Assembly: GCA_034521515.1 (NCBI GenBank)
Contig: JAXHMH010000002.1
Location: forward strand, 216,379-280,378
Direction: 5' to 3'
Source: Candidatus Saccharimonadota bacterium
GTDB lineage: Bacteria; Patescibacteriota; Saccharimonadia; Saccharimonadales; JAXHMH01
Length of the DNA stretch: 64,000 nucleotides
The first letter of the stretch is position 1, and each line of letters starts with the position of its first letter. The notes beneath the pieces are model-generated. The model searched no databases. It was not told where the DNA came from and was given only the letters and a program-made list of their open reading frames with translations. Positions 1-62,014 of the stretch are shown here, piece by piece. The position numbers were made by a program, and so were the translations under genes.

Positions 1-205
<205 letters not shown>

Positions 206-230
206 AAAATGTTGAGCTCACTGCGATACA

Positions 231-3320: not shown

Positions 3321-5375
<2,055 letters not shown>

Positions 5376-15493: not shown

Positions 15494-15520
15494 TCTTCCG
15501 CCCTTAAAATATTTAAAAAA

Positions 15521-15544
15521 CCGCTCAACAGGGAGCGGTTTTTT
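15521..15544. terminator. Bidirectional intrinsic terminator (rplT on +, probably rnpB on -)
   Basis: CCGCTC-aacagg-GAGCGG flanked by an A-run on the left and a T-run on the right. Confidence 0.7.
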
Positions 15545-15548
15545 AAGT

Positions 15549-15649
15549 GTCAGCCCAGTAGTAGACTTTTGAGTTAGCGCGCTTTCGATGCAAACCTATT
15601 AGATTTCAGTTTTGCTGAAATCCTTCTCAAAAGCTCACTACTGGGTCAG
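15549..15649 (-). mobile_element. ~100-nt terminal-inverted-repeat hairpin element, copy 1 (MITE-like)
   Basis: GTCAG-CCCAGTAGTAGA...GCTCACTACTGGG-TCAG. The same termini are seen at 55974-56069. Flanked by TCAG/TCAG. Confidence 0.5.
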
Positions 15650-15675
15650 ATTATCTATAAGCCGGGTTCTGTTCA

Positions 15676-15742
15676 CCCCGCACCTTTTCGTGGCGACTTA
15701 TCAATCTGGTTGCAGACTGTTTCGCCCAGAAAAGGTGCGGGG
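15676..15742 (-). repeat. 66-67-nt hairpin module inside rnpB (P18 position)
   Basis: CCCCGCACC...CAGTCTG-CAAC-CAGATTG...GGTGCGGGG. Near-identical to 15915-15980. Confidence 0.75.
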
Positions 15743-15914
15743 GAGCCAATCATCTATCTAGCTCTAGGATTGTTCCTAGAATCGAGCGGATCTTATGATG
15801 CATCTTCGGCGGGGAACCGTATGAAGACACACCTCCTTGCAGCAGACAGGGTTTACCATTTTCCATCGTCACCGACAGGAACTGTGGGCTCTTACCCCAC
15901 TCGTTTCACCTTTA

Positions 15915-15980
15915 CCCCGCACCACTTCAAGGTGCTAAACAATCTGGTTGCAAACTGTATCGCCCTGAAGTGGTGCGGGG
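15915..15980 (-). repeat. 66-nt hairpin module inside rnpB (P8/P9 position)
   Basis: CCCCGCACC...CAGTTTG-CAAC-CAGATTG...GGTGCGGGG. Paralogue of 15676-15742. Confidence 0.75.
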
Positions 15981-16165
15981 TAGTTTCGTTTCTGTGGCAC
16001 TTTCCCTAGGGTTGCCCCCGGTCGCCGTTAGCGACTGTCTTCCCCTTCGCTGCCCGGACTTTCCTCCCCCTCACCAGCTTTCAGGAGAACAAGCCTTGGC
16101 TTGCTTCTGCCTGGAAAGTGGTGAGGGGGCGATCGGCCGATAGTCTGACCTTTTTATTATATCAT

Positions 16166-16843
16166 CTACTTCTTAGATTCAGCGTCGAGAACCTCATTCA
16201 CTTCAGAATCTGCTAACTTATTTAGCTTACGAGGTACATGTGTAAAAGTAACGCTTTTAAACTGTTCAACCAGCTTTTTTATCGCTTCGTGAATTGGCCA
16301 TAAGTCCCGGTTTTTAACCTTAAAAATACCCTTCATCTGATTAACAACAAGCATGCTGTCCATATAGGCGTCAATTTCTTGAGCCCCAAGTTTTAGCGCT
16401 TCTTCAAGCCCCAGTTTAAGAGACTGATATTCCGCTTGATTGTTGGTAGTTATGCCAAGATATTCACCACTTTTCTTTATGACCGTATCGTCTAAATCAA
16501 GTAGTACATAACCGGATGCTGATGGGCCAGGATTCCCGCGAGAACCACCATCAGAATACATTTTTATGTGCTTATGCGTCTTGGGTTTACTGGAACTTTT
16601 TTTGCCCCCATCAGCCACCAAGTCAATGGCTTTGGCTAGACTTTTATCTTTATCTGTCACCTTACCTTCGGCCTCGTGGGTACTAAGCCAAATTTTCACC
16701 TTATTCCACTCATTCTCCCATCTTGGATGGTGTTGCTGTTTTTCTGCCTCTTCTGCTACCGCCTGCATAAAACTAAAAGCTTCGTTAAAATCTTTAAACT
16801 TAAACTCTTTATATAGCTGGTTGTTTGTTTCTTGCCATTTCAT
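16166..16843 (-). CDS. Fusion protein: pterin-4a-carbinolamine dehydratase (PCD/DCoH)-like domain + RNase HI domain
   Basis: N-terminus [61 protein letters not shown] (PCD signature). C-terminus [19 protein letters not shown]...NNQAEYQSL...DSMLVVNQM...NKLADS (RNase H D-E-D-D type). Confidence 0.75.
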
Positions 16844-19957: not shown

Positions 19958-21175
19958 TTATGCAGGTGTTTTGTTCAAAAACGTTGTGACAATATCTACA
20001 CCAGAACTGGGGTCGTGTATCCAGTGAATACTTTTGTTACGCTTGAACCATGTGTTCTGCCGCTTGGCTAGTTGGAGGGTATCTTTTACGATTCTCATCT
20101 TGGTATCCGCCAAACTTTGGTTGTCGCAAAAGTACTCACGCCACTCCTGGTACCCAATTCCCTTCAGAGCCTCGCACTCCCAGCCGTATTTTTTGGACAA
20201 CTCCCTCACCTCTGGCTCAAGCCCTGCTTCAATCATCGCATCAACGCGGGCTGTTATTCTTTTTCGGAGCATTTCATGGGGCAATTTTACGCCAAGTATC
20301 AGCGTGTTCGATCGTATGTCGTGTCTTGTTGGTTTTGCACCGCCGGTCTCTAGCAGACGTATCAAGCGACGTTTATTTTGGGTGTCGATTCCATCAGTGT
20401 CTAAGCCTTTGGATTCTATGCGTCTTAGCAATTCCTTAAGGCTAAGAGCATTGAGCTCTTGCCGAGCCTCCCTGTCGCCTTCTGGTAAAAAGCCGTAGTC
20501 AAAAAGAACGCCATCTACATATAGCCCTGTACCGCCTACCATAATTGGCAGTTTACCCCTGGATCCTATGTCTTCAATAGCCTCGAGTGCTAAATCTTTA
20601 AACACTGCTGCAGTAAAGTCATCGCACGGATTCACAATATCTAGTAAGTGATGTTTGACTTGTGACTGCTCTTCTTGGCTTGGCTTGGCGGTACCAATGT
20701 TCACTTCTCGCCTCACAGTCCAGGAATCTGCTGCGATGATTTCGCCACCAAACTTCTTGGCGAGTTCAATAGCCAGCGCCGACTTACCGCTGGCAGTAGG
20801 CCCGACAATTACAACAAGTGGTAATTTGGAGGTTGGAGGTTGGAGGATGGAGGATGGATTTTTGCTATCTTGTTGCTTAGGTCTCCATAAAAGCCTTTCT
20901 ACATCCACCCGGTAATTTTCATCAACTGCAATACCCTCAGCTTCAAGCACCTGCTTATGCCCAGATTTGCCACCCGGATAACCATTGGCCAGACCGCCAC
21001 TCTTGTTGACCACCCGCTGCCATGGCAAATCCGGATTGCCAAAGTGCGCAATACCGCCGACAATCCTAGCTGCCCGGGCATTCCCAGCCAGTGCCGCAAT
21101 CTGCCCGTATGTCATCACCCGCCCTTTAGGAATCTCCGCAACAAGCGCCTCCACCCGCTCCTTGAAGTCAGACAC
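19958..21175 (-). CDS. miaA: Fusion ORF: alkyltransferase-like (ATL, Cys-less MGMT DNA-binding) domain + tRNA dimethylallyltransferase MiaA
   Basis: N-terminus IPKGRVMTYGQIAALAGNARAARIVGGIAHFGNPDLPWQRVV (PCHR replaced by PWQR). C-terminus VIVGPTASGKSALAIELAKKFGGEIIAADS... (MiaA P-loop). Likely GTG start at 21175 overlapping the upstream TGA; the track start is 21211. Confidence 0.8.
   Translation of the reverse strand: MSDFKERVEALVAEIPKGRVMTYGQIAALAGNARAARIVGGIAHFGNPDLPWQRVVNKSGGLANGYPGGKSGHKQVLEAEGIAVDENYRVDVERLLWRPKQQDSKNPSSILQPPTSKLPLVVIVGPTASGKSALAIELAKKFGGEIIAADSWTVRREVNIGTAKPSQEEQSQVKHHLLDIVNPCDDFTAAVFKDLALEAIEDIGSRGKLPIMVGGTGLYVDGVLFDYGFLPEGDREARQELNALSLKELLRRIESKGLDTDGIDTQNKRRLIRLLETGGAKPTRHDIRSNTLILGVKLPHEMLRKRITARVDAMIEAGLEPEVRELSKKYGWECEALKGIGYQEWREYFCDNQSLADTKMRIVKDTLQLAKRQNTWFKRNKSIHWIHDPSSGVDIVTTFLNKTPA
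20828..20862. repeat. Heptad array forming the ATL-MiaA linker
   Basis: GGAGGTT GGAGGTT GGAGGAT GGAGGAT GGATTTT. Encodes ...KNPSSILQPPTSKLP... on the minus strand and contains no stop triplet in the reading frame. Confidence 0.8.
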
Positions 21176-21770
21176 CGAAATACTCCGCCACTTCCTTCCA
21201 ATCGGCAACACGCTCTACGCCAGGATGAAGTTCTTTACCCCTGCTCCAACCCCAGTCACCAAATAACAAGGCTTTCACACCGACTTCTGCTGCCAAGTTA
21301 CAGTGCTCAGGGCTATCGTCTATAAGGTAGCCGGCACCTATCTCCTTGCAAATATGAGCTTTTGTAACCTTTCGGTCGGAATCGCTCCATAAACTTACAA
21401 AGTGAACATCGGCAAAGATGTCTGCAGCGTACTTCCCAAGCATCTGATTGGTAATATCCACGAACTCAGCAGTACGTGAAGTAACAATCTCAAGTTGATA
21501 TCGACTTTTTAGCTTCTCGAGTATGGCTACATCTTCTCGTAGGATCGACTGGTTCGCCTTATGGCTACTGGTCAAAAATTCCTTAAACAGAGTGTACGGA
21601 TCTTCGCCCGTGTCCCCCCACAGCCTTTCATAGTATCCCCAATAATCACCGGGCTTTTTGAAGTCGTCGTAGGTAAGGTTTAAGCCAATCCTCTCCTTTG
21701 AGAAAGCAATAATAGCGTCCACCTCCGAACATAAAACTTCGTCAGCATCTACTGCGATGATTTCTCTCAT
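21168..21770 (-). CDS. HAD-superfamily hydrolase, 5'(3')-deoxyribonucleotidase-like
   Basis: N-terminal AVDADEVL (DxDxV/T motif). 200 aa with an NT5C-like layout. Confidence 0.55.
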   Translation of the reverse strand: MREIIAVDADEVLCSEVDAIIAFSKERIGLNLTYDDFKKPGDYWGYYERLWGDTGEDPYTLFKEFLTSSHKANQSILREDVAILEKLKSRYQLEIVTSRTAEFVDITNQMLGKYAADIFADVHFVSLWSDSDRKVTKAHICKEIGAGYLIDDSPEHCNLAAEVGVKALLFGDWGWSRGKELHPGVERVADWKEVAEYFGV

Positions 21771-33651: not shown

Positions 33652-34707
33652 CTAGTCGATATTGCAGGCAGGATCACTGCCAATATTCAGTACACTATCG
33701 CCAGGAATAACAGAGAACTGTTTACAGATGGTCTGATTCGACTCAATCGCGTAAGAGGGCACCGGACCCTCAATGGTGCTTGAGTTAACTCGAACTTGTA
33801 TCCGACGGAGCACATCATTCGCGCGCCCAGTAGCATCAACGAGAGCTTGTGCATTAAGCAATCTATGCGCCCCGCTACCGCAATCTGGTGAACATATTGT
33901 CATTGAAGCTGCCTTATATAGCGCGGTGATACGTAAATGATACTCGGATCCTTGGTTCAGCCCTTCTATGGTAAGCCTACAATGCTGTGGTGTGCCTTCA
34001 GGGTCACAGTTAACGCCCACAGTGGCACCCTGATTGCCCCCTGAAGCTTGTGAAACATTGATGCTATTCGTCCCACCACTACTCATTGGTAGGGCAAAAA
34101 CTGTGGCCGTGTTTGTCACAAGTGAACTTCTTTGTAGGTTGGCAGCACCAGTTGGAACAATATCGAATCTCAGTACAGCAGGGGCGCAATCTGCGAACCA
34201 TTCCTGCGGGAACTGATTTTCAGTACCAGAAGGACAGCCCGTTAATGCATTATCACCGTCAGCAGAGCCCCAGTAAATTGTTGCCTCTCCGACGTTACCG
34301 ACGCCTTCTGGGTTAACAGGCACAACACGAGCTTCGCCGACCCCGATATTGCCATACTCCAAAGAGTGTGGTGTCGGATCAATCAACAAACAACTATAAG
34401 AAATCGCTCCGTCAACTCCGTCGAGCACATTATCGTAGCCCTCTACGGGGTCACAGTCAGTTTTTTGGTCATATGGTTGCCAGTCGCCAACCCGAAGGGC
34501 CTCGACAGCATCATTGACTCCAGACTCAGCAGCGTAAAAAGCTTGTGAGCTAAGCTGCCGGTCAAGTGCCTGCTGCTGCTCACGGTGTGTGATTCGCGAG
34601 AAACTGAGCACAATTAAAGTGAGGATAAAAATCATCACCATTGTTACCAATATAGAAACGAGTCCTTCTTGTTTATTATGTAATTTTTTGAGTTTCTTCA
34701 TATCCAT
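33652..34707 (-). CDS. PilX-like pilus minor component (N-terminal hydrophobic helix, no obvious G|F cleavage site)
   Basis: QEGLVSILVTMVMIFILTLIVLSFS...QQQALDRQLSSQAFYAAESGVNDA (PilX_N pattern). Last gene of the pilus cluster. Confidence 0.6.
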   Translation of the reverse strand: MDMKKLKKLHNKQEGLVSILVTMVMIFILTLIVLSFSRITHREQQQALDRQLSSQAFYAAESGVNDAVEALRVGDWQPYDQKTDCDPVEGYDNVLDGVDGAISYSCLLIDPTPHSLEYGNIGVGEARVVPVNPEGVGNVGEATIYWGSADGDNALTGCPSGTENQFPQEWFADCAPAVLRFDIVPTGAANLQRSSLVTNTATVFALPMSSGGTNSINVSQASGGNQGATVGVNCDPEGTPQHCRLTIEGLNQGSEYHLRITALYKAASMTICSPDCGSGAHRLLNAQALVDATGRANDVLRRIQVRVNSSTIEGPVPSYAIESNQTICKQFSVIPGDSVLNIGSDPACNID

Positions 34708-34722
34708 ACTTTTGCACTTCTC

Positions 34723-35349
34723 TTATTGTATACGCTTTTGCACAATTGTATCCAATTCGGCCACCGAACAAAACTCCGAACCTGTTATAGTCTCACAACT
34801 ATCTAAATTGCCATCCCCTGTTCTGTCTACCAATAAGTCATCATCTCCATAAATGACTGTCAGACTGATGCTGTACAGCCCTTCGGTAGATAGAGGTTGA
34901 ACTTCGAGGTTTGCAAGACGCATATGTAATCCCAGCAGCTCCCTCCCTTCTGGATCGGCGATGACATCCTGGGCTGGCGTAAGACTATTACATGATGCGA
35001 CCGAATCCACCACAAGCGCATTGCTAACCTGCTCATCCACAGGTGTGTTCGCTAGTTGACGATGGAGTACATAACTATACCGACGTGAACCTACACAAAA
35101 ACCCTGCGAGTTCCCATTCTCGGCTATAACAGGTTCTACACTATCGGCATTAAACTGTATAGCTTGTGACACATCTTCTAGTATCACGCGTGCTGTCTCG
35201 CTGGTTGCTGTTATGGTGACACCCTTGTAAAACATTTTGCCCACCTGAATAATACCGACACTTATGAGCAACAAAATGGTAGAAAAAACAGCCGTGGCAA
35301 CGAGTAATTCGATAATAGTAAACCCATCGTTGCTGCGATGCATGCTCAT
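34723..35349 (-). CDS. Prepilin-type minor pilin (PilW-like)
   Basis: Class III signal SNDG|FTIIELLVATAVFSTILL. Confidence 0.7.
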   Translation of the reverse strand: MSMHRSNDGFTIIELLVATAVFSTILLLISVGIIQVGKMFYKGVTITATSETARVILEDVSQAIQFNADSVEPVIAENGNSQGFCVGSRRYSYVLHRQLANTPVDEQVSNALVVDSVASCNSLTPAQDVIADPEGRELLGLHMRLANLEVQPLSTEGLYSISLTVIYGDDDLLVDRTGDGNLDSCETITGSEFCSVAELDTIVQKRIQ

Positions 35350-35804
35350 GGATACACCCTGTAGTACGCATTTAGCATCTGTGGATCACCTCCGCCTAGA
35401 CGATCCCACTGGGCACGAACATTAAAAACATATCTCCCATCACTGGAGGAATCACGAAAAATTTGTACTTGATACCTCCCACTGCCTCCATCGTCGGGAC
35501 CGAACCGACACTCATTTAGATTATCCTGTCGGACTAAACTCCCGTCGATACAGTAAGGCTCGGTTGTGTCAGAAGCGAATAAATCGTTGTCCGGTTGTGC
35601 AGCGACTGTTTTAAGCTTCTCGAGTTGCTGTTCAACCACTTTTGATGCCTCAACACGCTCGGCAGCCCGTTGGTTCATCTGTAGCGACCGACGAGCAGAC
35701 ACATACGCACCCCCGAGCACAAGCGATACAATAGCTATCGCTATTAGGACTTCAACAATGGTGTCGCCACGCTCGGATATACGAAGTCTGCTCATGATGG
35801 ACAA
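35346..35804 (-). CDS. Prepilin-type minor pilin (PilV-like)
   Basis: SERG|DTIVEVLIAIAIVSLVL. 4-nt overlap with the downstream gene. Confidence 0.65.
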   Translation of the reverse strand: MSIMSRLRISERGDTIVEVLIAIAIVSLVLGGAYVSARRSLQMNQRAAERVEASKVVEQQLEKLKTVAAQPDNDLFASDTTEPYCIDGSLVRQDNLNECRFGPDDGGSGRYQVQIFRDSSSDGRYVFNVRAQWDRLGGGDPQMLNAYYRVYP

Positions 35805-36676
35805 TCTCCTCCCTGGATTGATAGCTCGGTATACGGCGAACCCTTGCTGCCAATTGTAATAATTGCATGATTATTCCCGCCACCACTCTCTAAACAAACC
35901 GCTACACCGCCTTCGGGATTAACAGATGACGTAGCACTGTCTTGCACAATCGCATTTGCCATGGCCATTTTATCTTGTCCAAGCTGTGAGCCTTCAATCG
36001 GCAACAAGTCAACATTACGTGCACCACCTTCAGCCCCCCCCGAGCCGGACTGTCCTTGCTGTGCGAAATCAGTGAAAAAACCAACGGCTCCAATAGGATC
36101 GCCACCTGCACCTCCACTGCGCACCCAAACTACGCTTACCCCGCTCGGAATCAGGGTGTCTGATGTGAGATCTGGTGCTGCCAATGTGGCATTATTGTAT
36201 GGGGTTAACGGAATAGTGCTTGCCTCCGACAAATTCTGTACATCCCGGCCATCTATCTGCCGTCGTCCAGCAACAGAAAACGTTCTGTACATTTCTGCTG
36301 CTGGCCAATCTGTATCGTTCGGGTGAAACTGTATTACCCTGCCAATAAATATGCAGTCGGGATTCTGTCCTTGTCTGCCTTCTGCTGTTTGGGTAATCGT
36401 CGGTAAACTCCCAGAAGCGACTACGCACCGTGCGCCTTCACGATACTCGTAATAACCAGTAGACACATCATTCATGATGTCGCGTAGTTGAACATTGAAT
36501 TCCTGTATTCCATACTGAAATTCTGCCCGAGCTTGACGACCAGCCATCATCCCTGCAGCACTCACGAACAGTACTGACGAAACCGTCAAAAAAATCATAG
36601 TTTCAATAATGGTATAACCTTGCGGCTTTCTGCCACGTTTCATAGCGTCAGTATAGCATAAGCACTTCTTGGGCAA
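35792..36676 (-). CDS. Prepilin-type minor pilin (FimT/GspH-like); alternative start at ATG 36643
   Basis: KPQG|YTIIETMIFLTVSSVLF. Confidence 0.65.
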   Translation of the reverse strand: MPKKCLCYTDAMKRGRKPQGYTIIETMIFLTVSSVLFVSAAGMMAGRQARAEFQYGIQEFNVQLRDIMNDVSTGYYEYREGARCVVASGSLPTITQTAEGRQGQNPDCIFIGRVIQFHPNDTDWPAAEMYRTFSVAGRRQIDGRDVQNLSEASTIPLTPYNNATLAAPDLTSDTLIPSGVSVVWVRSGGAGGDPIGAVGFFTDFAQQGQSGSGGAEGGARNVDLLPIEGSQLGQDKMAMANAIVQDSATSSVNPEGGVAVCLESGGGNNHAIITIGSKGSPYTELSIQGGDCPS

Positions 36677-36682
36677 GAGGCA

Positions 36683-37537
36683 TTATATGAGTAAGATATT
36701 AGTGCTGTACCACTGAACCAACAGATCACCCCACAAAAACATAATGATACCTGCGATGATAAGAAATGGACCAAACGGTATTTTGTTGGCAACTTGCAAT
36801 CGCTTGGTAAGCAGGAACGGCAAAACTGTGATCGTCCCAATTATAGACGATAGAAAGATTACTCCAGCAGCTTTTAGTGCGCTGCCAGCGAGTAAGCCAA
36901 GTAAAAAACCAAGCTTTACATCCCCGCCACCAATCCATCTGCCATCCGATACCTGAAACAGAATCCAGAAAAACCCGCCACCAACAATTGTAGCTAAAAC
37001 TAGTGAAAAAATGTCAGAAAGATTACCTTGAAATAATACCCACACAATACTAACGACCACCCAAAATATTCCTAGCGGGTAAACCAGCTTGTTGGGTAGT
37101 AACATCCACTTAATGTCGTAAACAGTCAGAGCAACCAAGCCCGTCAACAACACCAACCAGCTAACAAATAGCACCCAGCCGGCTAGCTCAAAACCATACG
37201 GCCATGCAAGGTACGACATAACGAAAAGCAACCCAGTCGTCAGCTCTACAGCCGGATATTGCCAATTTATTGATTTATGACAATAGCGGCACCTTCCCTT
37301 CAAGGTAAGCCAGCTAACAAGTGGGATTAAATCCTTTGGGTTAAGCGCATGTTTACAATGTGGGCACATCGATCGGCCAAATAAGCCATAATCGCCTTGC
37401 CAAAGACTATTTTTACTTTTTATTTTTTTTGATTTGCGAGTTTTTGCGTGTTTAATGCTTTGGTGTATTCGAAACACTAGAGCATTTACAAAACTACCCA
37501 GCGCTAGGCCGTAAATAAACAGTATTACATAAATCAT
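36683..37537 (-). CDS. pilD: Prepilin peptidase / N-methyltransferase (peptidase A24)
   Basis: CPHC...CRYC zinc motif in the N-terminal region, polytopic, GGGDVKL-type aspartyl motif. Confidence 0.88.
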   Translation of the reverse strand: MIYVILFIYGLALGSFVNALVFRIHQSIKHAKTRKSKKIKSKNSLWQGDYGLFGRSMCPHCKHALNPKDLIPLVSWLTLKGRCRYCHKSINWQYPAVELTTGLLFVMSYLAWPYGFELAGWVLFVSWLVLLTGLVALTVYDIKWMLLPNKLVYPLGIFWVVVSIVWVLFQGNLSDIFSLVLATIVGGGFFWILFQVSDGRWIGGGDVKLGFLLGLLAGSALKAAGVIFLSSIIGTITVLPFLLTKRLQVANKIPFGPFLIIAGIIMFLWGDLLVQWYSTNILLI

Positions 37538-37557
37538 TTACGCTTAATCTTATCACA

Positions 37558-37582
37558 TAAAAAGCGGCCAATCTGTGGCCGC
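37558..37582 (-). terminator. Intrinsic terminator after the major pilin gene
   Basis: Minus sense GCGGCCA-cagat-TGGCCGC + TTTTT, 42 nt after the pilA stop. Confidence 0.65.
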
Positions 37583-37623
37583 TTTTTGCACATCGCATCC
37601 TTTTTATTACTTGCAGTAATACT

Positions 37624-38106
37624 TTAGCCCTCTTGACATTGAGGAACAGCTCCGCCAGTTGAATCTTCAACAGAAAATCGAACTGCTATTTGGCGGCTAG
37701 AACCAGCTAACGTGTCCCCTATTTCTGACTCGTCACATCTGGCACCTGAAACCAATTGCATTGCATCAATATCAACTTCGCTGGATTGAGCACCGGAATC
37801 CACACTGGTCGGCGGTTCAAGAAAACCCAAGTTGGCTAAATCATTAATTGTTGTAACATCGTCGTTATCGGAGGGCAGTTGGCCATTATTATTGGCAACG
37901 AACTCATTTACAGCACCCAGATAAGAGGCGACGTCGTTGCGACGTTGAGTATTTCGACTGTTTCGTTGAAGTGCCGGAACAGCCAAAAACACCACCAGCA
38001 TAATCAATCCGGCAATTGCTAGTACAATCAAAACTTCAATGATCGTAAAACCGTTAGAGCTGCCTAAGACCGACCCTTTCTTGTTTTTATCTGTTTTAGT
38101 TTTCAT
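37624..38106 (-). CDS. pilA: Type IV major pilin
   Basis: SSNG|FTIIEVLIVLAIAGLIMLVVFLAVPAL. C-terminal Cys pair (C...C) typical of the D-region. Has its own terminator. Confidence 0.85.
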   Translation of the reverse strand: MKTKTDKNKKGSVLGSSNGFTIIEVLIVLAIAGLIMLVVFLAVPALQRNSRNTQRRNDVASYLGAVNEFVANNNGQLPSDNDDVTTINDLANLGFLEPPTSVDSGAQSSEVDIDAMQLVSGARCDESEIGDTLAGSSRQIAVRFSVEDSTGGAVPQCQEG

Positions 38107-38196
38107 AATGCAAACGCCCCCTTTGCACTTTATAATTTACGCTACTATATGAAGCAAGCTTAACGCTAATGCTATTGAAATGCAACCCTGTATAAA

Positions 38197-39414
38197 TCAA
38201 CGTATGACTCCTTGTCCGGCTAGCCCATAGATGGGTAGTAATATTGCAGCAACGATTATGAAAGCAAAAATACCGAGAATTACCATCAAGACTGGTTCAA
38301 TTATTGTGGATATAGCCTTCACTTGGTTATCAACTTCTTTTTCATAATAGTCTGCTACTTTACTCATCATCTCTTCTATAGAACCAGATTGTTCACCTAT
38401 ACTAAGCATATCTGGAACAAGCGGTAAGAAATTCCCATCATCTTTAAGAGAATCAGACAGCGATTTCCCTCCCCTAACCTTCTCAATGGCATTCCGGAGA
38501 CTCTTCTCTACGTGTACATTATTGATACTCTTGGCCGTAATCTCCAACATTTGGATAAGTGGCACTCCACTAGCAATTAGAGTTGTTCCTGTGCGCGCGA
38601 ATCGCGCCATGTACATCTTCATAAAAAGCGGGGATATTGGCCATATTTTCATTTTTAGCCTGTCTACTAAGCTTTTTCCGCCAAGTGTTTTAACCCATCT
38701 ACTCGTAAAGAATGCGATTAAGCCGATACAAAGTAAGACGACCCACCAAAAATTAATAACAAACGAGGAAATGGCCAACAAAACACGCGTAACAAGCGGA
38801 AGTTGGGCGCCTGGCAGGCCAGCATATAGTTGTTCCACCTGTGGTAATACGCTCACAATCATAAATATGACAACTCCAAGCATAACCAAAATAACAATAA
38901 CTGGATAAACCATCGCGCCGCGCACCTTACTCATCAACTCAGCATCTTTCTCTTGTTGATCTGCAAGTCGCTCTAGCGATTTATCAAGGGTGCCCGAGGT
39001 TTCACCGGCAGCAATCATATTTACATATACTTGATCAAACACATTTGAGTGTTTGTCCATTGCTTTGGATAAGGTCATTCCGGCTTCAACATCGTTAATC
39101 AATTGGCTAACTACTGTTTCCAGGGCTGAATTTTGTGTTTGTTTCGCCACATTTCGTAATGCTTGAATCAACGGCAAGCCTGCGTTAATCAGGGTTGACA
39201 ATTGTCGCGAGAAAAGCACCTTATCCTTGGCACGGATTCTATTTTTTATCTTGCCAAAACCTTTTTGGGTGCTCTCTTTGGCTTTTATATCAATCGGTGC
39301 GAGGCCTTCTTGGTGAATAAGTTTTGCGGCTGCCTGTTCGCTATCAGCTTGAACCTCGGCTTTAACCTTTTCGCCAGTGGCGGGATTGCGGGCTGTATAA
39401 GTAAACGTTAGCAT
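38197..39414 (-). CDS. pilC: Type IV pilus platform protein PilC (GspF family)
   Basis: 405 aa, two GspF repeats, 3 TM, AGETSGTLD / GEQSGSIEE motifs. Confidence 0.9.
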   Translation of the reverse strand: MLTFTYTARNPATGEKVKAEVQADSEQAAAKLIHQEGLAPIDIKAKESTQKGFGKIKNRIRAKDKVLFSRQLSTLINAGLPLIQALRNVAKQTQNSALETVVSQLINDVEAGMTLSKAMDKHSNVFDQVYVNMIAAGETSGTLDKSLERLADQQEKDAELMSKVRGAMVYPVIVILVMLGVVIFMIVSVLPQVEQLYAGLPGAQLPLVTRVLLAISSFVINFWWVVLLCIGLIAFFTSRWVKTLGGKSLVDRLKMKIWPISPLFMKMYMARFARTGTTLIASGVPLIQMLEITAKSINNVHVEKSLRNAIEKVRGGKSLSDSLKDDGNFLPLVPDMLSIGEQSGSIEEMMSKVADYYEKEVDNQVKAISTIIEPVLMVILGIFAFIIVAAILLPIYGLAGQGVIR

Positions 39415-39435
39415 ACAGAATCTCCGGTTTTACGA

Positions 39436-39463
39436 GTTGAAAGTTGAAAGTTGAAAGTTGAAA
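39436..39463. repeat. Perfect (GTTGAAA)x4 tandem heptamer between pilT and pilC
   Basis: gttgaaagttgaaagttgaaagttgaaa. On the mRNA strand this is (UUUCAAC)x4, 22 nt upstream of the pilC AUG. Partly complementary to the purine-rich words at 39480-39512. Confidence 0.95.
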
Positions 39464-39516
39464 GTACTCTGTTTTTTGCTTTATTAATCTTATAAACTTT
39501 TAACATTATACTTCCA

Positions 39517-40590
39517 TTATCCTCTCATTAGTCGATCAAGCTCTTCAATATCAACTGCAACCATTCTTGCTTCTTCATACGTTATGGTACCGTTATGGAT
39601 CAAATTAACCAGCGTTTTATCCATAGATTGCATGCCATGATCTGACCCGGTTTGAATAACTGCTTCTAGCTGGTGTGTTTTACCTTCACGGATAATATTG
39701 CGCACTGCTGACGTCGCAATAAGAACCTCTGCAGCAACCACGCGCCCACCCCCAATTCCCGGCACAAGTCTTTGTGAGCAAATTGCCATTAGGATATTTG
39801 ATAACTGGGTACGAATTTGTGGCTGTTGGTGCGGCGGAAACACATCAACCATACGGTCGATACTCTGCGACGCGGAGTTAGTATGCAACGTTGCAAGCAC
39901 TAGGTGGCCGGTCTCAGCAATAGTGATAGCTGCGGCAATCGTCTCAAGGTCACGCATTTCACCGATCAAAACAACGTCAGGATCTTGACGTAAGCTACTG
40001 CGTAATGCTGCTGAAAAGGAGTAAGTATCGTAATGAACTTCGCGCTGCACAACTACAGACTTTTTGGGTTTATGAGTAAACTCGACAGGATCCTCAATAG
40101 TAACAATATGCGCTGAGCGTTCGCTGTTAATTTTATCTAAAATAGCGGCAAGTGTAGTTGATTTACCGGAGCCGGTTGGACCAGTAACCAGTACTAATCC
40201 TCGAGGATAGTCTGCAAATTTACTCACTGTTTGCGGTAAACCAAGTTGTTCCACGCTTAAAATTTCGTTTGGAATCAAACGAAGTGCTGCAGCCAAGTTG
40301 CCTCGCTCATGAAACGCGTTAACACGAAAACGGCCAAGATCCCCAAAGGCAAAACTAAAATCAAACTCTTTGTCTTTTAGTAGTATTTGCTTTTGATCGT
40401 CGTCCAAGATTGCAAAAATAAGTGTTTCGACGGCTTCTTCTGTTAGTGCATCAGCGCTCTGTACCGCAACTAGCGCACCGTCAACCCTCAACATCGGCGG
40501 CAAACCAACCTGAATATGAAGATCGGATGCTTTCTTTTTAATAACTTCTTCTAGTAATACTTCGATTCTTGGTTGTGCTGCCATATCCAC
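39517..40590 (-). CDS. pilT: Twitching-motility retraction ATPase PilT
   Basis: 357 aa, GPTGSGKSTTLAA, Asp/His boxes (VVLIGEMRD, TGHLVLATLHT), no GSPII_E N-domain. Confidence 0.92.
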   Translation of the reverse strand: MDMAAQPRIEVLLEEVIKKKASDLHIQVGLPPMLRVDGALVAVQSADALTEEAVETLIFAILDDDQKQILLKDKEFDFSFAFGDLGRFRVNAFHERGNLAAALRLIPNEILSVEQLGLPQTVSKFADYPRGLVLVTGPTGSGKSTTLAAILDKINSERSAHIVTIEDPVEFTHKPKKSVVVQREVHYDTYSFSAALRSSLRQDPDVVLIGEMRDLETIAAAITIAETGHLVLATLHTNSASQSIDRMVDVFPPHQQPQIRTQLSNILMAICSQRLVPGIGGGRVVAAEVLIATSAVRNIIREGKTHQLEAVIQTGSDHGMQSMDKTLVNLIHNGTITYEEARMVAVDIEELDRLMRG

Positions 40591-40609
40591 CCTTCCGTTG
40601 TTGTATATG

Positions 40610-42412
40610 TTAAGCGCTATCTGCTGCGGCTACGCGATTTACTTCGTTTATAGAGGTATATCCTGCCAGAGCTTTCAAATATCCATCTTCGCGCATGGTA
40701 ATCATGCCTTGTTTTTGCGCAGTTCTTTGAATATCCGAACTAGTTGACCGTTTTAAAATGTGCTCTTGGATCTCTTCAGAAACATCGAATACTTCATACA
40801 GACCCATTCGCCCCTTGTACCCTCCTGGTGTCTCGGGACTTTCTTTGCCCTCAAATAAAGTATAAGCGTTTTGCCCGCTTAGAGGCAAGCTTTCGTAACC
40901 TAAATCCTCTGCAACTTGCTTTACGTCGGCTTCTGTTTTTGGCAGCAAATGCCCGACAGTTGAGTTAATTGCCTCAACTTCTGCTTTGGTGGCTTGACGT
41001 TCTTCTTTTTCTTCAGTTAAGCGACGAACCAGACGCTGACCAATCACCGTATGTACGGTACTGGCTATCAAGAACGGTTCTATTTCCATATCAAGCAATC
41101 GAGGAAGAATACCGGCCGCTGAGTTGGTATGCAGTGTCGAGAACACAAGATGCCCTGTCAAGGCCGCCTGTACCGCAAGCGTAGCTGTCTCGCTATCACG
41201 AATTTCCCCGACCATAACTATGTCAGGATCTTGACGCAATATCGATCGTAAGCCAGACGCAAAGTTTAAGCCGACTTCCGGATTAACTTGAATCTGATTA
41301 ATACCTTCCATCTTATATTCAACCGGGTCTTCCAGTGTCACGATGTTAACGGCATCGTTTTTGATTTCTTGAATTAACGCATAAAGTGAAGTTGACTTAC
41401 CTGATCCGGTTGGACCGCTTGTCAGCACCATACCATTGGAGCGCTCTAGGCCCTTTCGAATTGTTCGCAGTGCTCGTCCGTGATAACCCATATCCTCTAA
41501 CTTAAAACTGGTACCGGATTTATCAAGCAGACGAATAACCACTTGTTCACCCCAGACAACTGGCGAAATTGCAATACGTAGATCAATCGGTCGGTCTTCA
41601 ACCATAATGGTGAACTGTCCGTCTTGCGGTGTTCTGTGTTCATCGATTTTTAGACTTGCTAGGATCTTTATACGAGAAACCAAGGCTGCCTCTGTATTTT
41701 TCGGTAACTTCATAATCTCACGCAAAACTCCGTCAATTCGGCAGCGTATTTTCAGCTCATGCTCGGTTGGTTCAATGTGTATATCGCTGGCTCTGTTTTT
41801 GGCAGCGTATTCCATAATGGCTGACAAAGCCTTACTTATTGGAGAATCTTGAACAATGGTTTTAATTTTGTCTTGAGTCTTATCAGATTTGCCACCGTCA
41901 GTATCTTGATCCGCCTGTTTCTTACCCGCCTGATTCCCTTCCAAGACATCGGTTACCTGCGTATCTAAACGAGCATCATACTGCTTTAAAACCCTCCGAA
42001 TACCTTCTTCGCTGGCTGCATACACTTTAAGGGGTCGTCCGATTTTGTTAGCCAAGAAATCAACCGCCTGTACGTTATCGGCGTCAAGCATGGCAACAAC
42101 GAGACGATTCTGCATCTCTCCAAGCGGAACAGCCATATAGCGCTCGGCTATGTCTTGCGGCAATAACATTAATATGTCTGGATTTATTCTGGCGTTGGTA
42201 AGATTCACGTATGGTATTTTGCTGGCTTGAGCCATAGCCTTAGTAAGCACCTCGTTATCCACCAAACCGTCTTCAACGAGTAGACCAAATAGAGGTTTTT
42301 TAGCTGTCTCAGCCTTTGCTTTGGCAGCTTTCAACGCATCAGCGGTTATATCTCCGTCTTTAACGAGATTATCTTCAACTTGTTTCTGGGTTGCAGAAGA
42401 TAAGACACTCAT
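40610..42412 (-). CDS. pilB: Type IV pilus assembly ATPase PilB
   Basis: 600 aa, N-terminal GSPII_E_N repeat, GPTGSGKSTSLYA, IVMVGEIRD, TGHLVFSTLHT. Confidence 0.92.
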   Translation of the reverse strand: MSVLSSATQKQVEDNLVKDGDITADALKAAKAKAETAKKPLFGLLVEDGLVDNEVLTKAMAQASKIPYVNLTNARINPDILMLLPQDIAERYMAVPLGEMQNRLVVAMLDADNVQAVDFLANKIGRPLKVYAASEEGIRRVLKQYDARLDTQVTDVLEGNQAGKKQADQDTDGGKSDKTQDKIKTIVQDSPISKALSAIMEYAAKNRASDIHIEPTEHELKIRCRIDGVLREIMKLPKNTEAALVSRIKILASLKIDEHRTPQDGQFTIMVEDRPIDLRIAISPVVWGEQVVIRLLDKSGTSFKLEDMGYHGRALRTIRKGLERSNGMVLTSGPTGSGKSTSLYALIQEIKNDAVNIVTLEDPVEYKMEGINQIQVNPEVGLNFASGLRSILRQDPDIVMVGEIRDSETATLAVQAALTGHLVFSTLHTNSAAGILPRLLDMEIEPFLIASTVHTVIGQRLVRRLTEEKEERQATKAEVEAINSTVGHLLPKTEADVKQVAEDLGYESLPLSGQNAYTLFEGKESPETPGGYKGRMGLYEVFDVSEEIQEHILKRSTSSDIQRTAQKQGMITMREDGYLKALAGYTSINEVNRVAAADSA

Positions 42413-42427
42413 CTGTATGACTCCTCT

Positions 42428-42682
42428 CTACTGCTCAGAATCATCAAACGGACTAGTGTTCGGATCATCGGTACCAATTCTTATTTCTTGTGTTGGGTTA
42501 ATTGAATCCTCGTTAAAAAACCTTTCATCTGGAGTTGGAAATTCAGAAACTATTGGATGCACCACTTCAACTTCCTGTTGCCTATTCTCTGGTGTTGATA
42601 TCAATAAGTTAGACAATATAAACGAAAATATACCGGTTATGAAAATTATTATAATAACGAGTGCTATGTCTTTCTGCTTCAT
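42428..42682 (-). CDS. Small single-TM protein within the pilus cluster (PilP position)
   Basis: 84 aa, N-terminal TM. 4-nt overlap with the upstream pilO-like gene. Confidence 0.45.
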   Translation of the reverse strand: MKQKDIALVIIIIFITGIFSFILSNLLISTPENRQQEVEVVHPIVSEFPTPDERFFNEDSINPTQEIRIGTDDPNTSPFDDSEQ

Positions 42683-43356
42683 CGGATTACCCTTGTGTCG
42701 ATGGTTAGACTTTTACCTGGCTGATAGTATGTTTTAGCCTTTAGCAGTAACTCTATATCGTTCTGCTCCCCACTAATGGTAAGCTGCGTTATATGGAAAG
42801 GTCGTATGGATCTATCAATATCATCAATTAGCTGTTTTACAGTTTCGTAGTTAGCCGAAACACTGAACTCAAAAGGCATCTCAATTGGACTAGGGTTGGT
42901 TTGCCCTTCCACGTCCTGATGTGCAAGCTCATCATCAACACCGGAAATACTGTTTATCGCGACACCTCCGTTCCTTAACATTTTCTCCACACTTGCGGTT
43001 AATGCCGGAAAATCGTACGTACTAGGTAGTGCATCAAGTATGATTTTTGCATTATCACCACCCCGTGCAGTATTGCTTGTAGAACTACCGGATATTATAT
43101 TCTCGGGAGATTCAACAAACACCTTATATGAGGCGAGCAACTCCTCAACTTCTTCGATATTTTTTAATAACTGATCTCTAGCCTTGGTTTTTTCGGTTAT
43201 AATCTCTGACTGATAAGATTGCTGATCAAACAAAGCAAACGATCCAACGATAGAGAATACCGTAACAATCGAAGCAACAATTACAACTGTTAACATTGCC
43301 GCATTAGCCTTGCTAATCTGAACCCTCTTACCTGATATGATGGGCGATAAAGCCAT
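42679..43356 (-). CDS. pilO: PilO-like pilus alignment protein
   Basis: 225 aa, N-terminal TM + coiled-coil + C-terminal ferredoxin-like region. Position after pilN. Confidence 0.55.
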   Translation of the reverse strand: MALSPIISGKRVQISKANAAMLTVVIVASIVTVFSIVGSFALFDQQSYQSEIITEKTKARDQLLKNIEEVEELLASYKVFVESPENIISGSSTSNTARGGDNAKIILDALPSTYDFPALTASVEKMLRNGGVAINSISGVDDELAHQDVEGQTNPSPIEMPFEFSVSANYETVKQLIDDIDRSIRPFHITQLTISGEQNDIELLLKAKTYYQPGKSLTIDTRVIR

Positions 43357-44072
43357 TACTGTGTCTCCTCGCTCTCTGGTTGAAATAGATCTACCGGCCG
43401 CTGAATTTGTGATCGTGTTGTAACGGTCTGGGGCACCGTAAGTGTTACATCATTCCGGTCATCAAAGATTATGGGGTCATACGTAAACGTAATTTGATAA
43501 TTGGCACCTTCTTCTGTGACGCTAAACTGACTGAGTACCACTTGACTGAAGGCTGTTTCGTTGTTTAGCTCAGGTTCATTATCATCTTCCTCAGAAACAA
43601 TGCTATATGTAGAGAACTTTAAAGAATCTACATACTCATTAACTATACTAAGTGCGCTGTTTTCGTCGATTGCCACTGTGCTGCCAGAGATAGAAGCCGT
43701 TTGAAGATTAAAATCTATATCAAATTTTGATATTGTCGCCTCTACCGGGGTTACTTTAGAAATATATTCAAACAGCCTGTTTGCTGCCGGTTTTTCTTCG
43801 TGTAAATCAGTTAAGCTAAATAGCTGGTTTTGTACGGTTAGAATTTTATCAAGCTCCGGTATATCTTGGAGTTCTTGGCTTGACTGAGCAATATCTTCAT
43901 CAAGATTATTTATGTGTGTTCTCTGGACAACATTTACATACAAAAACAGTAGCACCAAAATAGCAAACGCAGAACATCCAACCAACGAAGAGAGCAGTAT
44001 GACAACCCGCTTGGTGCGTTTTGTCTTAATGTATTCAATTTTTACATCAGGTAGAAGATTAAACTGTATCAT
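43356..44072 (-). CDS. pilN: PilN-like fimbrial assembly protein
   Basis: IQFNLLPD start motif, single TM. 1-nt overlaps with both neighbours. Confidence 0.7.
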   Translation of the reverse strand: MIQFNLLPDVKIEYIKTKRTKRVVILLSSLVGCSAFAILVLLFLYVNVVQRTHINNLDEDIAQSSQELQDIPELDKILTVQNQLFSLTDLHEEKPAANRLFEYISKVTPVEATISKFDIDFNLQTASISGSTVAIDENSALSIVNEYVDSLKFSTYSIVSEEDDNEPELNNETAFSQVVLSQFSVTEEGANYQITFTYDPIIFDDRNDVTLTVPQTVTTRSQIQRPVDLFQPESEETQ

Positions 44073-45112
44073 TAGCCAATCCTCTCCGCTAAACCGGCTG
44101 CCACACCGAAGTGGTTAGACACAGCAAGCAGTTCATTTTGCCGCTCAGACGGGAATACGACATTTTGCCAAGCATTACCTATCTCTACACTGATACCAAA
44201 TTTGTTTGCCACGTACAGTGGGAACTCCGGCAAAGCTGAAGCGCCCCCTGTAACAACAATACGTTCTATAGGCACGTTGGGGTATCTGGTCTGGAAAAAT
44301 TTTATTGACTTATCAATCTCATTTACTAACACATCAACGGTGCCAATAATTGCTTGATACACCTGCCCCTCTAGTTTTTCTTTACCTAGTCCAAACTTGA
44401 ATACAAACTGTTCGGCTTGTTTTTCATCAACCCCAAGATTTTGTGTAGCTGATTTAATAATTGCTTCAGCACCCGTCGGTATAGATCTGGTTAAACGTGG
44501 CGCACCGTTCATAGCAATGACCAAATCGGTACTTTTATTACCAATATCAAGCACCATGTGCGGTGTCGTGGCATTAGACGGAAGCATGGCTCGAGTTAAT
44601 GCTAGGTTATCCGGCTCAAAGGCAATAACATTAAGACCGATCGATTCCAGCATGTCCAAACGATTCTCTACAAACTCATTAGTAACACTTGAGATCAACA
44701 CTTCTACCTTTGTCTTGTCCTTTGGAGAATCTCCAAGCAATGCCCAGTCAAGTTTTGATTCAGAGAGCGGAGTCGGTATTAAAGAATCTGCTTGGTATCG
44801 TATAGATTTGTCTAGTTCAGACGGATCAAGCCGGTCAATATCTACTACCGTGGTAAAAACTCGTTGTGAAGGTAATCCGACCGCAACATTTTTAGTTGAT
44901 ATCTTTGCCTGTGCCAATAAATCTCGAATTGTTTGCATGAGTTTCTGCTGATCGGCTTTTGAGTCGCTCATTGAAACTTTGCTATCAACCGAAATTTGAG
45001 CGTACTTTATTAGAGACTTCGGCACCTTATTACCTTGCAGCTCGACCGCTCGCACAGCGGTAGTGCCAATGTCTAAGCCGATAAATTCAGATACCCCACT
45101 CAATATGCTCAT
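44072..45112 (-). CDS. pilM: Type IV pilus assembly protein PilM (actin-like ATPase fold)
   Basis: GLDIGTTAVRAVEL, DIGNKSTDL, VVTGGASALPEF. Confidence 0.88.
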   Translation of the reverse strand: MSILSGVSEFIGLDIGTTAVRAVELQGNKVPKSLIKYAQISVDSKVSMSDSKADQQKLMQTIRDLLAQAKISTKNVAVGLPSQRVFTTVVDIDRLDPSELDKSIRYQADSLIPTPLSESKLDWALLGDSPKDKTKVEVLISSVTNEFVENRLDMLESIGLNVIAFEPDNLALTRAMLPSNATTPHMVLDIGNKSTDLVIAMNGAPRLTRSIPTGAEAIIKSATQNLGVDEKQAEQFVFKFGLGKEKLEGQVYQAIIGTVDVLVNEIDKSIKFFQTRYPNVPIERIVVTGGASALPEFPLYVANKFGISVEIGNAWQNVVFPSERQNELLAVSNHFGVAAGLAERIG

Positions 45113-48816: not shown

Positions 48817-49155
48817 ATGAGCCTATTATACCCCAACTAAACTCAAAAACACCATGTAGAAAAACCTCGCACTAATCAATTTTACTGAAATATGTTTACT
48901 AGTCTTTTGAGCATATGTTCCATTTAGTCAGAATCCTTTCTTGGCCTAGTTTTTTAAGTTAAAAATAAACGCGCCAGTCGAGTGGCGTGTTTATTACTTC
49001 TACCATTTTTGTTATAACGCCTATCCTATATAATAATCACTAATGAGTTTATCAATAGGAATCGTGGGGTTTGCCCCGTACCAAAACCCGTGCACAGCAG
49101 CAAGTAATCAGGTTGCGGAGCTACGAGTTTTTGGTACAGATAGCGGGAGCCGAAC

Positions 49156-60931: not shown

Positions 60932-61675
60932 TTATGTAATTTTCTTTAAAATTGCTGGTATTGTCTGAAAGTCATCTATAAGTGTTTGACGCATTCCTCC
61001 GTTATATAACGCCGCCGCCGGGTGATACAGCGGTAGGATGACCAACGTCAGCGCATCCTGCTTTCCGGCAAAGCCGGAAACACTGCTGCGCTTCGCGGCG
61101 GATTGCTGTGTGGATGACTGCGATACTCCCTTCGCCGTATTGCTATACGGCTCGGTCCGTTTCTCATCATCGCCTTGCACTCCATCCGCGCGCTGATCCC
61201 CTACCAGGTCGGTGAAGGCAAGCTTAATGCGCTTAGGTTGTCCGTGAACCTTGCTTATTTGCAGGTCCGGCAAGAAGCAGTTCATGCTGTGGCGACCTAG
61301 TGTCACCACAACTTTAGGCGCAATTGCTTCCAGCTGAGCCTGTAAATACGGCAAGAATGCCTGCTTCTCTCCCGGTAATGGGTCCCGGTTGTTCGGCGGA
61401 CGGTATTTCACAATATTGGTAATGTACACTTCACTGCGATCAAGCTGTATCATCGCTAGCATTTCATCAAGAAATTTACCGGCAGCACCGACAAATGGTT
61501 TACCTTGTTCATCCTCTTTTTTGCCAGGCGCTTCACCGATAAAAACGACGTCAGCGTCCGGACTCCCATCGCCAAAAACCAGTTGTGTTGCTTGCTTGGC
61601 CAGTTCCGGGCAAACATTCTGTTTGAGAATATCTGCCTCAATCCGATCAAGCTGGGTTGTAGTATCTTTGCTCAT
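60932..61675 (-). CDS. Family-4 uracil-DNA glycosylase carrying a ~50-aa insertion
   Basis: [42 protein letters not shown]. Confidence 0.8.
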
Positions 61676-61899
61676 TTACTTCCGTATTTTATGTATACAC
61701 CTATAAGACGAGCTGTGTTTTGGATACCTCCCAGCAACAATATCACCGCCGGAATATAGTGCCAATAAGAGCCAGAATCAATCGCCCAACTGCTAAACAC
61801 ATAAGCCAGCGCAAACTCCATGACCGCAAATATAGTAAGTCCTTGCGGTGTTTTGTGCCATTTGTGTAGACGCGCGACGATTGATCTATGGCTGCTCAT
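61672..61899 (-). CDS. Small 2-TM membrane protein
   Basis: 75-aa ORF. 4-nt overlap with the UDG start. Confidence 0.4.
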
Positions 61900-62014
61900 T
61901 GTAACCTCTTATTTATCCAGTTCACGGGAAGCGGCTTCCCCCCGCGGCTTTTCGATGTATTCCATAATCTTATTGCAGACCACTCCATACTGAAAAGACG
62001 CGGAGCTTCGCATA

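Follow-up and report, generated by a model that had tools for sequence, protein, structure and literature searches.

The RNase P RNA gene (rnpB) of an uncultured member of Candidatus Saccharimonadota (Saccharibacteria) carries copies of one 66-nt hairpin at two peripheral helix positions and probably at a third, and another copy stands outside the gene. The gene lies in a 64-kb stretch of DNA, referred to here as the window, which is also the part of the genome in which copies were sought. The reading we favor, at a probability of roughly 55%, is that the hairpin is a module which extends helices and is particular to this lineage, that it is duplicated as DNA from one GC-clamped peripheral hairpin of rnpB to another and occasionally elsewhere, and that its copies are kept as tolerated coaxial extensions. 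Comparison with Rfam by cmscan places a bacterial class A RNase P RNA (RF00010) of 507 nt at 15642..16148 on the minus strand, with a score of 235.9 bits (gathering score 100, E = 1.9e-75) over model positions 1-367, the full length of the model. A preliminary description of the sequence had put an oversized type A rnpB at 15644-16150, within 2 nt of this match, and the sequences it quoted are the RNA-sense, minus-strand reading, in keeping with the strand of the cmscan match. The P4 strands (GAGGAAAGUC... and ACAGAACCCGGCUUA) and the type A helices P13, P14 and P18 are aligned with high posterior probability, and the full-length fold has a z score of -11.9. The gene is indeed unusually long, by about 150 nt: 28 of the 32 Patescibacteria rnpB genes that were measured span 337-401 nt, with a median of about 357 nt. 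It is not alone in this, as four others are also oversized, namely L012 (465 nt), L019 (518 nt), L029 (536 nt) and L047 (about 600 nt), the L-numbers being labels for Patescibacteria and Saccharibacteria comparison loci.

Module A (15915..15980, minus strand) is a 66-nt hairpin that forms the distal part of P12, where cmscan reports it as an insert between J11/12 ACAGAAA and J12/13 GGUGAAA. Module B (15676..15742, minus strand) is a 67-nt three-tier hairpin inserted after model position 335, and the order in the RNA is the P2 3′ strand, then B, then the P4 3′ strand ACAGAACCCGGCUUA. Both modules had been placed at exactly these coordinates before, but the helices then assigned to them need correction. 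In the RF00010 alignment, the module between ...GUGCCACAGAAA and GGUGAAA lies in P12 and not at the P8/P9 position, and the module 5′ of ACAGAACCCGGCUUA, which follows the P2 3′ strand, occupies the P19 site and not that of P18. The suggestion that the modules replace docking tetraloops is contradicted as well: P8, P9, P14 and P18 are present at normal size, and P8, P9, P13, P14, P15-17 and P18 of the window gene all align normally in cmscan. P18 itself (15762..15781, minus strand, from the cmscan alignment) is intact and ends in the loop ACAA (15770-15773), as opposed to the GNRA loop GCAA found in L085, L086, L090 and L094. In type A RNase P, the P18 loop normally docks into P8, and given the ACAA loop this contact may be weakened in the window lineage.

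The two modules are identical at 54 of 67 positions (81%) in a global alignment, and at 24 of the 26 nt of the tip. A 41-nt degenerate pattern of base and tip matches only A and B in the 64 kb, where shuffled sequences are expected to give no match. Self-similarity was screened in 44 rnpB genes, and the intragenic direct-repeat score of the window gene is 26, compared with a maximum of 12 in 200 shuffles. Folded alone, A reaches -44.4 kcal/mol (z about -10) and B reaches -43.1 kcal/mol (z about -9), and both also appear as independent hairpins within the full-length rnpB fold. In A the base and middle tiers are merged into a continuous 18-bp stem; the internal loop CGAU/UUAGCA separates it from the apical stem, which has 8 bp and carries the loop CAAC. 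In B the three tiers are explicit. The pairing-preserving differences of the preliminary description are found at basal pairs 10 (A-U/U-A) and 11 (C-G/U-A), each altered on both sides, and at apical pair 6, which is U-G in one module and C-G in the other. Judged from sequence and pairing, A and B are homologous (paralogous) copies and no chance lookalikes. An assembly artefact, which would make the duplication unreal, has almost no chance of being the explanation. Nothing specific speaks for it beyond the general ability of repeats to confuse assemblers, and the 13 differences between A and B are structured and compensatory. Moreover, an independent Logan assembly (run SRR26473340) is identical over 3320 nt, with the whole of rnpB included, and mis-assembly is therefore unlikely.

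A covariance model, R1, was built from module A, module B and a copy in P3 of L093, and was run over the window without filters; its E-values are rough, and the scores of 88.4 bits for A and 86.8 bits for B are those of its own training sequences. For the pair statistics, A, B, the L093 P3 copy and the extragenic copy X described below were aligned structurally by hand, because a MAFFT alignment of the copies is structurally inconsistent in the middle tier. The family features are a 9-bp clamp (CCCCGCACC/GGUGCGGGG), which is conserved in A, B and the L093 copy, a variable but always paired middle tier, and a conserved tip, GUYUG-YAAY-MAGAUU. Over the four aligned copies, 5 of the 22 alignable pairs are changed on both sides with pairing kept, and the middle tier, whose sequence is unalignable and different in each copy, nevertheless holds 4-7 bp in every one. 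The tip contains one invariant G-U pair, and its loop is CAAC, CAAU or UAAU. Internal loops differ in every copy (A/UAAG, CGAU/UUAGCA, symmetric GA/GA and GGA/GGA). Readings of the module loops as K-turn (kink-turn), UAA/GAN or GNRA motifs were rejected as inconsistent across copies, CAAC not being a GNRA loop. [quoted passage not shown]

The window rnpB contains a third long hairpin, which goes beyond the preliminary description. It is an extended P3 (16066..16129, minus strand), a 64-nt hairpin with a CAAG loop, seen as a 40-nt insert in P3 by cmscan and belonging to repeat families D2/I6. Its base (CCCCUCACCACUU/...GGUGAGGGG) resembles the module base, it scores 22.8-25.6 bits against R1 (E about 1e-3 to 6e-3), and it is identical to module A at 48 of 74 positions. 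This hairpin is probably a third, more diverged copy of the module, its membership resting on the clamp and the context. When the gene is compared with the 337-nt rnpB of L085, about 48, 53 and 68 nt are due to the three hairpins, and these ~170 nt are its entire excess length. Long stems at helix tips are also a feature of the intervening sequences of rRNA, and the perfect stretches of 14-18 bp (26-27 bp in all) in A and B are of that kind. On this alternative, the stems would be cut by RNase III, as in 23S rRNA, and mature RNase P RNA would consist of non-covalently associated fragments. We regard it as very improbable: the conserved tip would be irrelevant if the hairpins were simply excised, and three cuts would leave an essential ribozyme in four fragments. 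We know of no precedent for a fragmented bacterial RNase P RNA.

Since rnpB directly follows an RNase H gene in most Saccharibacteria, dozens of orthologous loci were available for comparison. The close relatives L085, L086, L090 and L094 (RNase H 72-74% identical) have a whole rnpB of 337-373 nt, with a short P3, a short P12 and a P19 that is absent or rudimentary. The contigs of L084, the closest relative (RNase H 78%), and of L092 (74%) end inside rnpB, after a short P3. In these six loci P3 measures 15-28 nt, and the P19 site is a hairpin-free 15 nt in L085, L094 and most relatives. The short or empty sites in relatives indicate that the three hairpins of the window are lineage-specific, and a duplicated or mobile structural insertion, as the modules were originally described, is thus the right class of event. 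Further copies, for which a search had been suggested, were found in P3 of L093, in P12 of L005 and 3′ of pnp in the window. The copy in L093 (RNase H 73%), CCCCGCACCUUAUCC...GUAGUUUGUAAUCAGAUUAC...AAAAGGUGCGGGG, is unmistakable at 75.5 bits with R1, and P12 of the same gene begins like the short form before the contig ends. The copy in L005 is diverged (32.9 bits, E = 1.8e-4), and P12 of L039 shares the module clamp. The clamp hairpin family shows a strong association with rnpB, counting six instances in four rnpB genes. A strict regular expression, consisting of the clamp plus a 9-bp complementary stem and blind to copy X and the L005 copy, was scanned over 589 kb and recovered three instances, in P12 of L039, in P3 of L093 and as the three rnpB copies of the window (counted per helix). 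Its other matches, in L048 and L054, are hairpins that differ in sequence from the family and whose positions were not mapped to any gene. Contig breaks were considered as a signal of repeated modules and rejected: the four independent Logan contigs L084, L088, L091 and L092 all end in one conserved rnpB stretch (CACA / CACAGAAA / CACAGAAACGA), and since L088 breaks there while its full-length twin L086 lacks the module, the breaks reflect a conserved block shared between strains.

Duplicated hairpins are also found elsewhere in Patescibacteria, with sequences unrelated to the window module. In L047, a 1.03-Mb contig, P3 (3500-3606) and P12 (3741-3855) are multi-tier hairpins of 107 and 115 nt whose arms share stretches of 50 nt (98%) and 46 nt (100%), the tip being the one place where they differ. 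The 5′ end of this rnpB, a gene with a real length of about 600 nt, is aligned wrongly by cmscan. In L028 (rnpB at 3439-3827) an identical 16-nt CUUG hairpin, CCCCGACUUGUCGGGG, serves as both P3 and P12, and in L003 (rnpB at 3720-4095, minus strand) P3 (GGCCGUCGGCAACGACAGCC) and P19 (GGCCGUCAGCAAUGACAGCC) differ at 2 of 20 nt. Each of these three duplications exceeds all 200 shuffles. They point to a process tied to rnpB rather than to one element, and the same process seems, from the sequences compared, to act on unrelated hairpins in the rnpB of other Patescibacteria. Not every enlargement is of this kind: among other Saccharibacteria, L019 and L029 have unrelated hairpins of roughly 150-165 nt at the P19 site, and L012 has a 143-nt stretch at P12. 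In the genes with duplicated hairpins, P3, P12 and P19 all start with CCC(C)...GGG(G) clamps. The Rfam consensus of P3 (CGCccc...gggGAGG) resembles that of P12 (CCgCcc...ggGuAAGG), and this similarity of context would help short-homology copying between the two helices.

The second finding beyond the preliminary description is copy X, a 66-nt hairpin of the module family outside rnpB (61940..62005, minus strand; 43.7 bits with R1, E = 8.5e-8). A sequence-only nhmmer search also recovers it (E = 1.1e-7), and with its apical motif GGTCTGCAATAAGATTA it gives the family pattern a third match in the window. Its fold has -27.6 kcal/mol and a z score of -4.9; 8 of the 9 clamp positions are paired, with one compensatory pair, and the closing pair of the tip is broken. 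No Rfam family matches it at E up to 1. Copy X begins 9 nt past the stop codon of the polynucleotide phosphorylase (PNPase) gene pnp, whose identity is confirmed by Pfam, and lies in sense orientation in the spacer before a 75-aa open reading frame (ORF). In this place just 3′ of pnp, a stable hairpin could block exonucleases or serve as a processing site. In the surrounding region (61672-63964, minus strand), PNPase is followed, on one and the same strand, by copy X, the 75-aa ORF (which has no Pfam match), a gene of the UDG family and RNase J. A doubtful, decayed copy (CCCCGUACC...ACAGCAGCAAGUAAUCAGGUUG...GGUAC) is found in the ychF 5′ leader (49074..49141, plus strand; 18.3 bits with R1, E = 0.066); with an nhmmer E-value of 0.21 and a fold z score of -4.0, it is not significant alone. 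All four clear copies in the window are in sense orientation relative to local transcription.

Copy X raises the possibility that the module is a genome-wide mobile palindromic repeat, similar to repetitive extragenic palindromic (REP) sequences, miniature inverted-repeat transposable elements or the Rickettsia palindromic element, which inserted independently two or three times in rnpB and once in the pnp spacer. The rnpB copies would then have survived only because P3, P12 and P19 tolerate insertions. A bona fide copy in an intergenic spacer is what such an element would leave, and the clamp arms are conserved like terminal inverted repeats around a varying interior. The short or empty P3, P12 and P19 sites of L085, L086, L090 and L094 fit as well, as does a patchy distribution over different helices in different genomes. 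There are also precedents in the Rickettsia palindromic element in a tmRNA gene (PMC1458961) and in the STRR sequences in cyanobacterial rnpB (Vioque 1997, cited in PMC2858038). The distribution of the copies nonetheless makes this explanation rather unlikely in our view. Two or three of the four or five window copies fall within 507 nt of 64 kb, and across four genomes nearly all copies are in rnpB and none in ~590 kb of other DNA, which is far from random insertion. Scans with R1 of 440 kb of relatives' loci and of the 10.9-kb L093 contig gave rnpB copies and none that was extragenic, and the strict regular expression gave no family member outside rnpB in its 589 kb. The exact tip pattern has no match in 185,579 species genomes, a collection in which the best RNase H match reaches 67%, and a metagenome scan with the tip pattern gave two matches, both by chance, in coding sequence without flanking stems and without rnpB. 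A Pfam scan of 57 window ORFs (two further short ORFs and three spurious ones were left out) found no transposase or REP-associated tyrosine transposase (RAYT), the only recombinase being a XerC/D-like integrase, and inspection of the module flanks showed no consistent target-site duplication. Finally, the intragenic duplications of L047, L028 and L003 were made with unrelated hairpins.

A different role for the module would be that of a functional recognition element for a lineage-specific protein or an RNA-RNA contact, carried by several RNase P RNA arms as well as by the pnp transcript. The conservation of tip and clamp over four copies from two genomes, against a drifting middle tier, the invariant G-U pair with its CAAC, CAAU or UAAU loop, and the sense orientation of all clear copies would each follow from recognition at the RNA level. 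The recurrence of one module on two arms in other Patescibacteria fits multi-site binding, for which a precedent exists in the binding of L7Ae to two kink-turns of Pyrococcus furiosus RNase P RNA (PMC4245976). However, relatives with a 72-74% identical RNase H and a whole rnpB are entirely without the module, which is therefore not needed for RNase P function in the clade. By inspection, the canonical K-turn layout (a 3-nt bulge and then tandem sheared G-A pairs, with one canonical and one non-canonical stem on the two sides) is absent from the four internal loops. The copies, whose internal loops all differ, contain no other recognized protein-binding motif either, copy X has a broken closing pair at its tip, and the 57 window ORFs scanned yielded no candidate for a partner. 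On balance, a recognition role appears improbable.

The favored explanation, copying between rnpB hairpins, is based on the homology of the hairpins, their helix positions, the short or empty sites in relatives, the maintained pairing and the extragenic copy. The module would belong to a subset of Saccharibacteria rnpB genes and would be received by peripheral helix tips that carry a CCC(C)...GGG(G) clamp and tolerate extra length: P12, the P19 site and probably P3 in the window, P3 in L093 and P12 in L005, with one spin-off 3′ of pnp. The most likely route would be short-homology gene conversion or template switching between GC-clamped hairpins, with no need for a dedicated transposase. Once transcribed and retained in the mature RNA, the copies would form coaxial extensions that face away from the catalytic core and leave core elements and docking loops untouched. 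Pairing may be kept because an unpaired insert would disturb folding, and the effect on RNase P is probably neutral or mildly stabilizing.

Several observations weigh against this explanation. Copy X, and perhaps the hairpin at 49074, lies outside rnpB; the family is therefore not restricted to this gene in the strict sense, and X would suit a dispersed mobile repeat just as well. The count of copies in this genome covers the 64-kb window out of a contig of at least 706 kb, and pattern scans of public genomes and metagenomes returned no other true copy. That tip and clamp are far better conserved than the middle tier would not be expected under pure neutrality and gives a hint of some sequence-specific constraint, and the sense orientation of the four clear copies is weakly suggestive of a role at the RNA level. 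The copying mechanism, for its part, is suggested by the shared CCC/GGG clamps alone.

Upstream of rnpB, on the same strand, lies a gene for a fusion of pterin-4a-carbinolamine dehydratase and RNase HI (16166..16843, minus strand; Pfam PF01329 with PF13456/PF00075), with its stop codon 17 nt from the rnpB 5′ end. An RNase HI gene in this position and orientation occurs in most Saccharibacteria and several other Patescibacteria (loci L002-L064), often fused to the same N-terminal domain. An extended -10 promoter element, TGATATAAT (16156..16164, minus strand), can be read from the sequence right after the rnhA stop codon, with the rnpB 5′ end ~7 nt downstream; a simple two-hexamer scan finds no -35 partner for it, and TG(G/C)TATAAT stands at the equivalent place in L084-L086, L090 and L094, the relatives read for it. 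Downstream, rnpB is tail-to-tail with infC-rpmI-rplT, and a terminator scan predicts a bidirectional intrinsic terminator that rnpB shares with rplT (15513..15546, minus strand), ~96 nt past the mature rnpB 3′ end. A 99-aa ORF antisense to rnpB (15710-16009, plus strand), which spans module A and reaches into the end of module B, might be mistaken for a gene, although it is almost certainly spurious. Farther away, MiaA (tRNA isopentenyltransferase; 19958-21211, minus strand) has an N-terminal methylguanine-methyltransferase-type DNA-binding domain, the two being separate adjacent genes in L095. A type IV pilus cluster (33652-45112, minus strand) encodes PilM, two T2SSE ATPases, T2SSF, a prepilin peptidase and several N-methyl pilins. 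The 5′ end of a 16S rRNA gene lies at the window edge (1-207, minus strand) beside gyrA/gyrB, where the Logan contig ends 213 nt after gyrA.

Descriptions of helix extensions in RNase P RNA and other structural RNAs usually take each helix by itself and treat the extensions as unrelated growths; those of the window rnpB are copies of one another. This offers a concrete route for the origin of expansion segments, by the copying of whole hairpins between GC-clamped helix tips. The hairpin, together with the analogous duplicated P3/P12/P19 modules of other Patescibacteria, could also be seen as a module dedicated to the docking of a lineage-specific partner, either protein or RNA, although we consider this improbable. 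If it were true, recognition would account for the conservation of tip and clamp, and RNase P of the candidate phyla radiation (CPR) would be evolving independently toward a multi-site ribonucleoprotein like the archaeal and eukaryotic enzymes; a partner recognizing the module would be a first sign of extra cofactors in a bacterial RNase P. In practice, the modules can make it easier to annotate CPR rnpB genes, whose scores are often under the usual thresholds, and they mark natural insertion-tolerant sites for the engineering of RNase P RNA.

The closest known parallel is found in CPR bacteria themselves, whose RNase P RNAs include diverged forms with "large extensions of helices" (Lui et al. 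2021, PMC8172020). P19, which lies between the P2 3′ and P4 3′ strands, is of variable length and sporadically present (PMC12974513), and P12 is dispensable in some bacteria (PMC2858038). As in these extensions, the window rnpB, also from a CPR host, keeps the type A core and confines its extra length to variable or dispensable peripheral helices, and the P12 or P19 inserts of L012, L019 and L029 are even larger. The extensions of the window differ in being mutual copies at two or three helices, with an extragenic copy in addition, a situation that PMC8172020 and PMC12974513 do not mention. We found no description in the open-access literature of an RNase P RNA whose extensions are paralogous from helix to helix, or of a recurrence of such paralogy in Patescibacteria.

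Repeat families have entered functional RNA genes before. STRR repeats are present in P12 of rnpB in heterocyst-forming cyanobacteria (Vioque 1997, cited in PMC2858038), and the tmRNA gene is the site of a Rickettsia palindromic element (PMC1458961). Like the module, both place a repeat-family sequence at a tolerant site of a functional RNA gene, which for STRR is P12, and the Rickettsia element is also hairpin-forming. The differences are that STRR sequences are tandem heptamers and the window rnpB is without tandem repeats, and that Rickettsia elements number hundreds per genome and the module family is nearly confined to rnpB in the data searched. The REP and bacterial interspersed mosaic elements of proteobacteria share with the module a stable imperfect palindrome, and the place of copy X, after a stop codon between co-directional genes, is a classic REP position. 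The window differs from these systems in the absence of a RAYT among its 57 scanned ORFs and in a far lower copy density. To our knowledge, REPs have not been seen inside rnpB.

Two further systems place related sequences at several sites of one RNA. Archaeal RNase P RNA carries L7Ae-binding K-turns at P12 and P16 (PMC4245976, PMC5499556). The likeness to the window lies in one recognizable module on more than one peripheral arm of RNase P RNA; unlike the archaeal K-turns, the window modules have neither K-turn geometry nor a known partner, and they are absent from close relatives. The expansion segments of eukaryotic rRNA co-evolve by "compensatory slippage" (the concept as used in PMC1888808). 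In both these segments and the modules, separate sites share sequence and pairing is kept by compensatory change; the eukaryotic segments are cryptically simple and generated by slippage, whereas the window module is a discrete, complex 66-nt hairpin copied whole.

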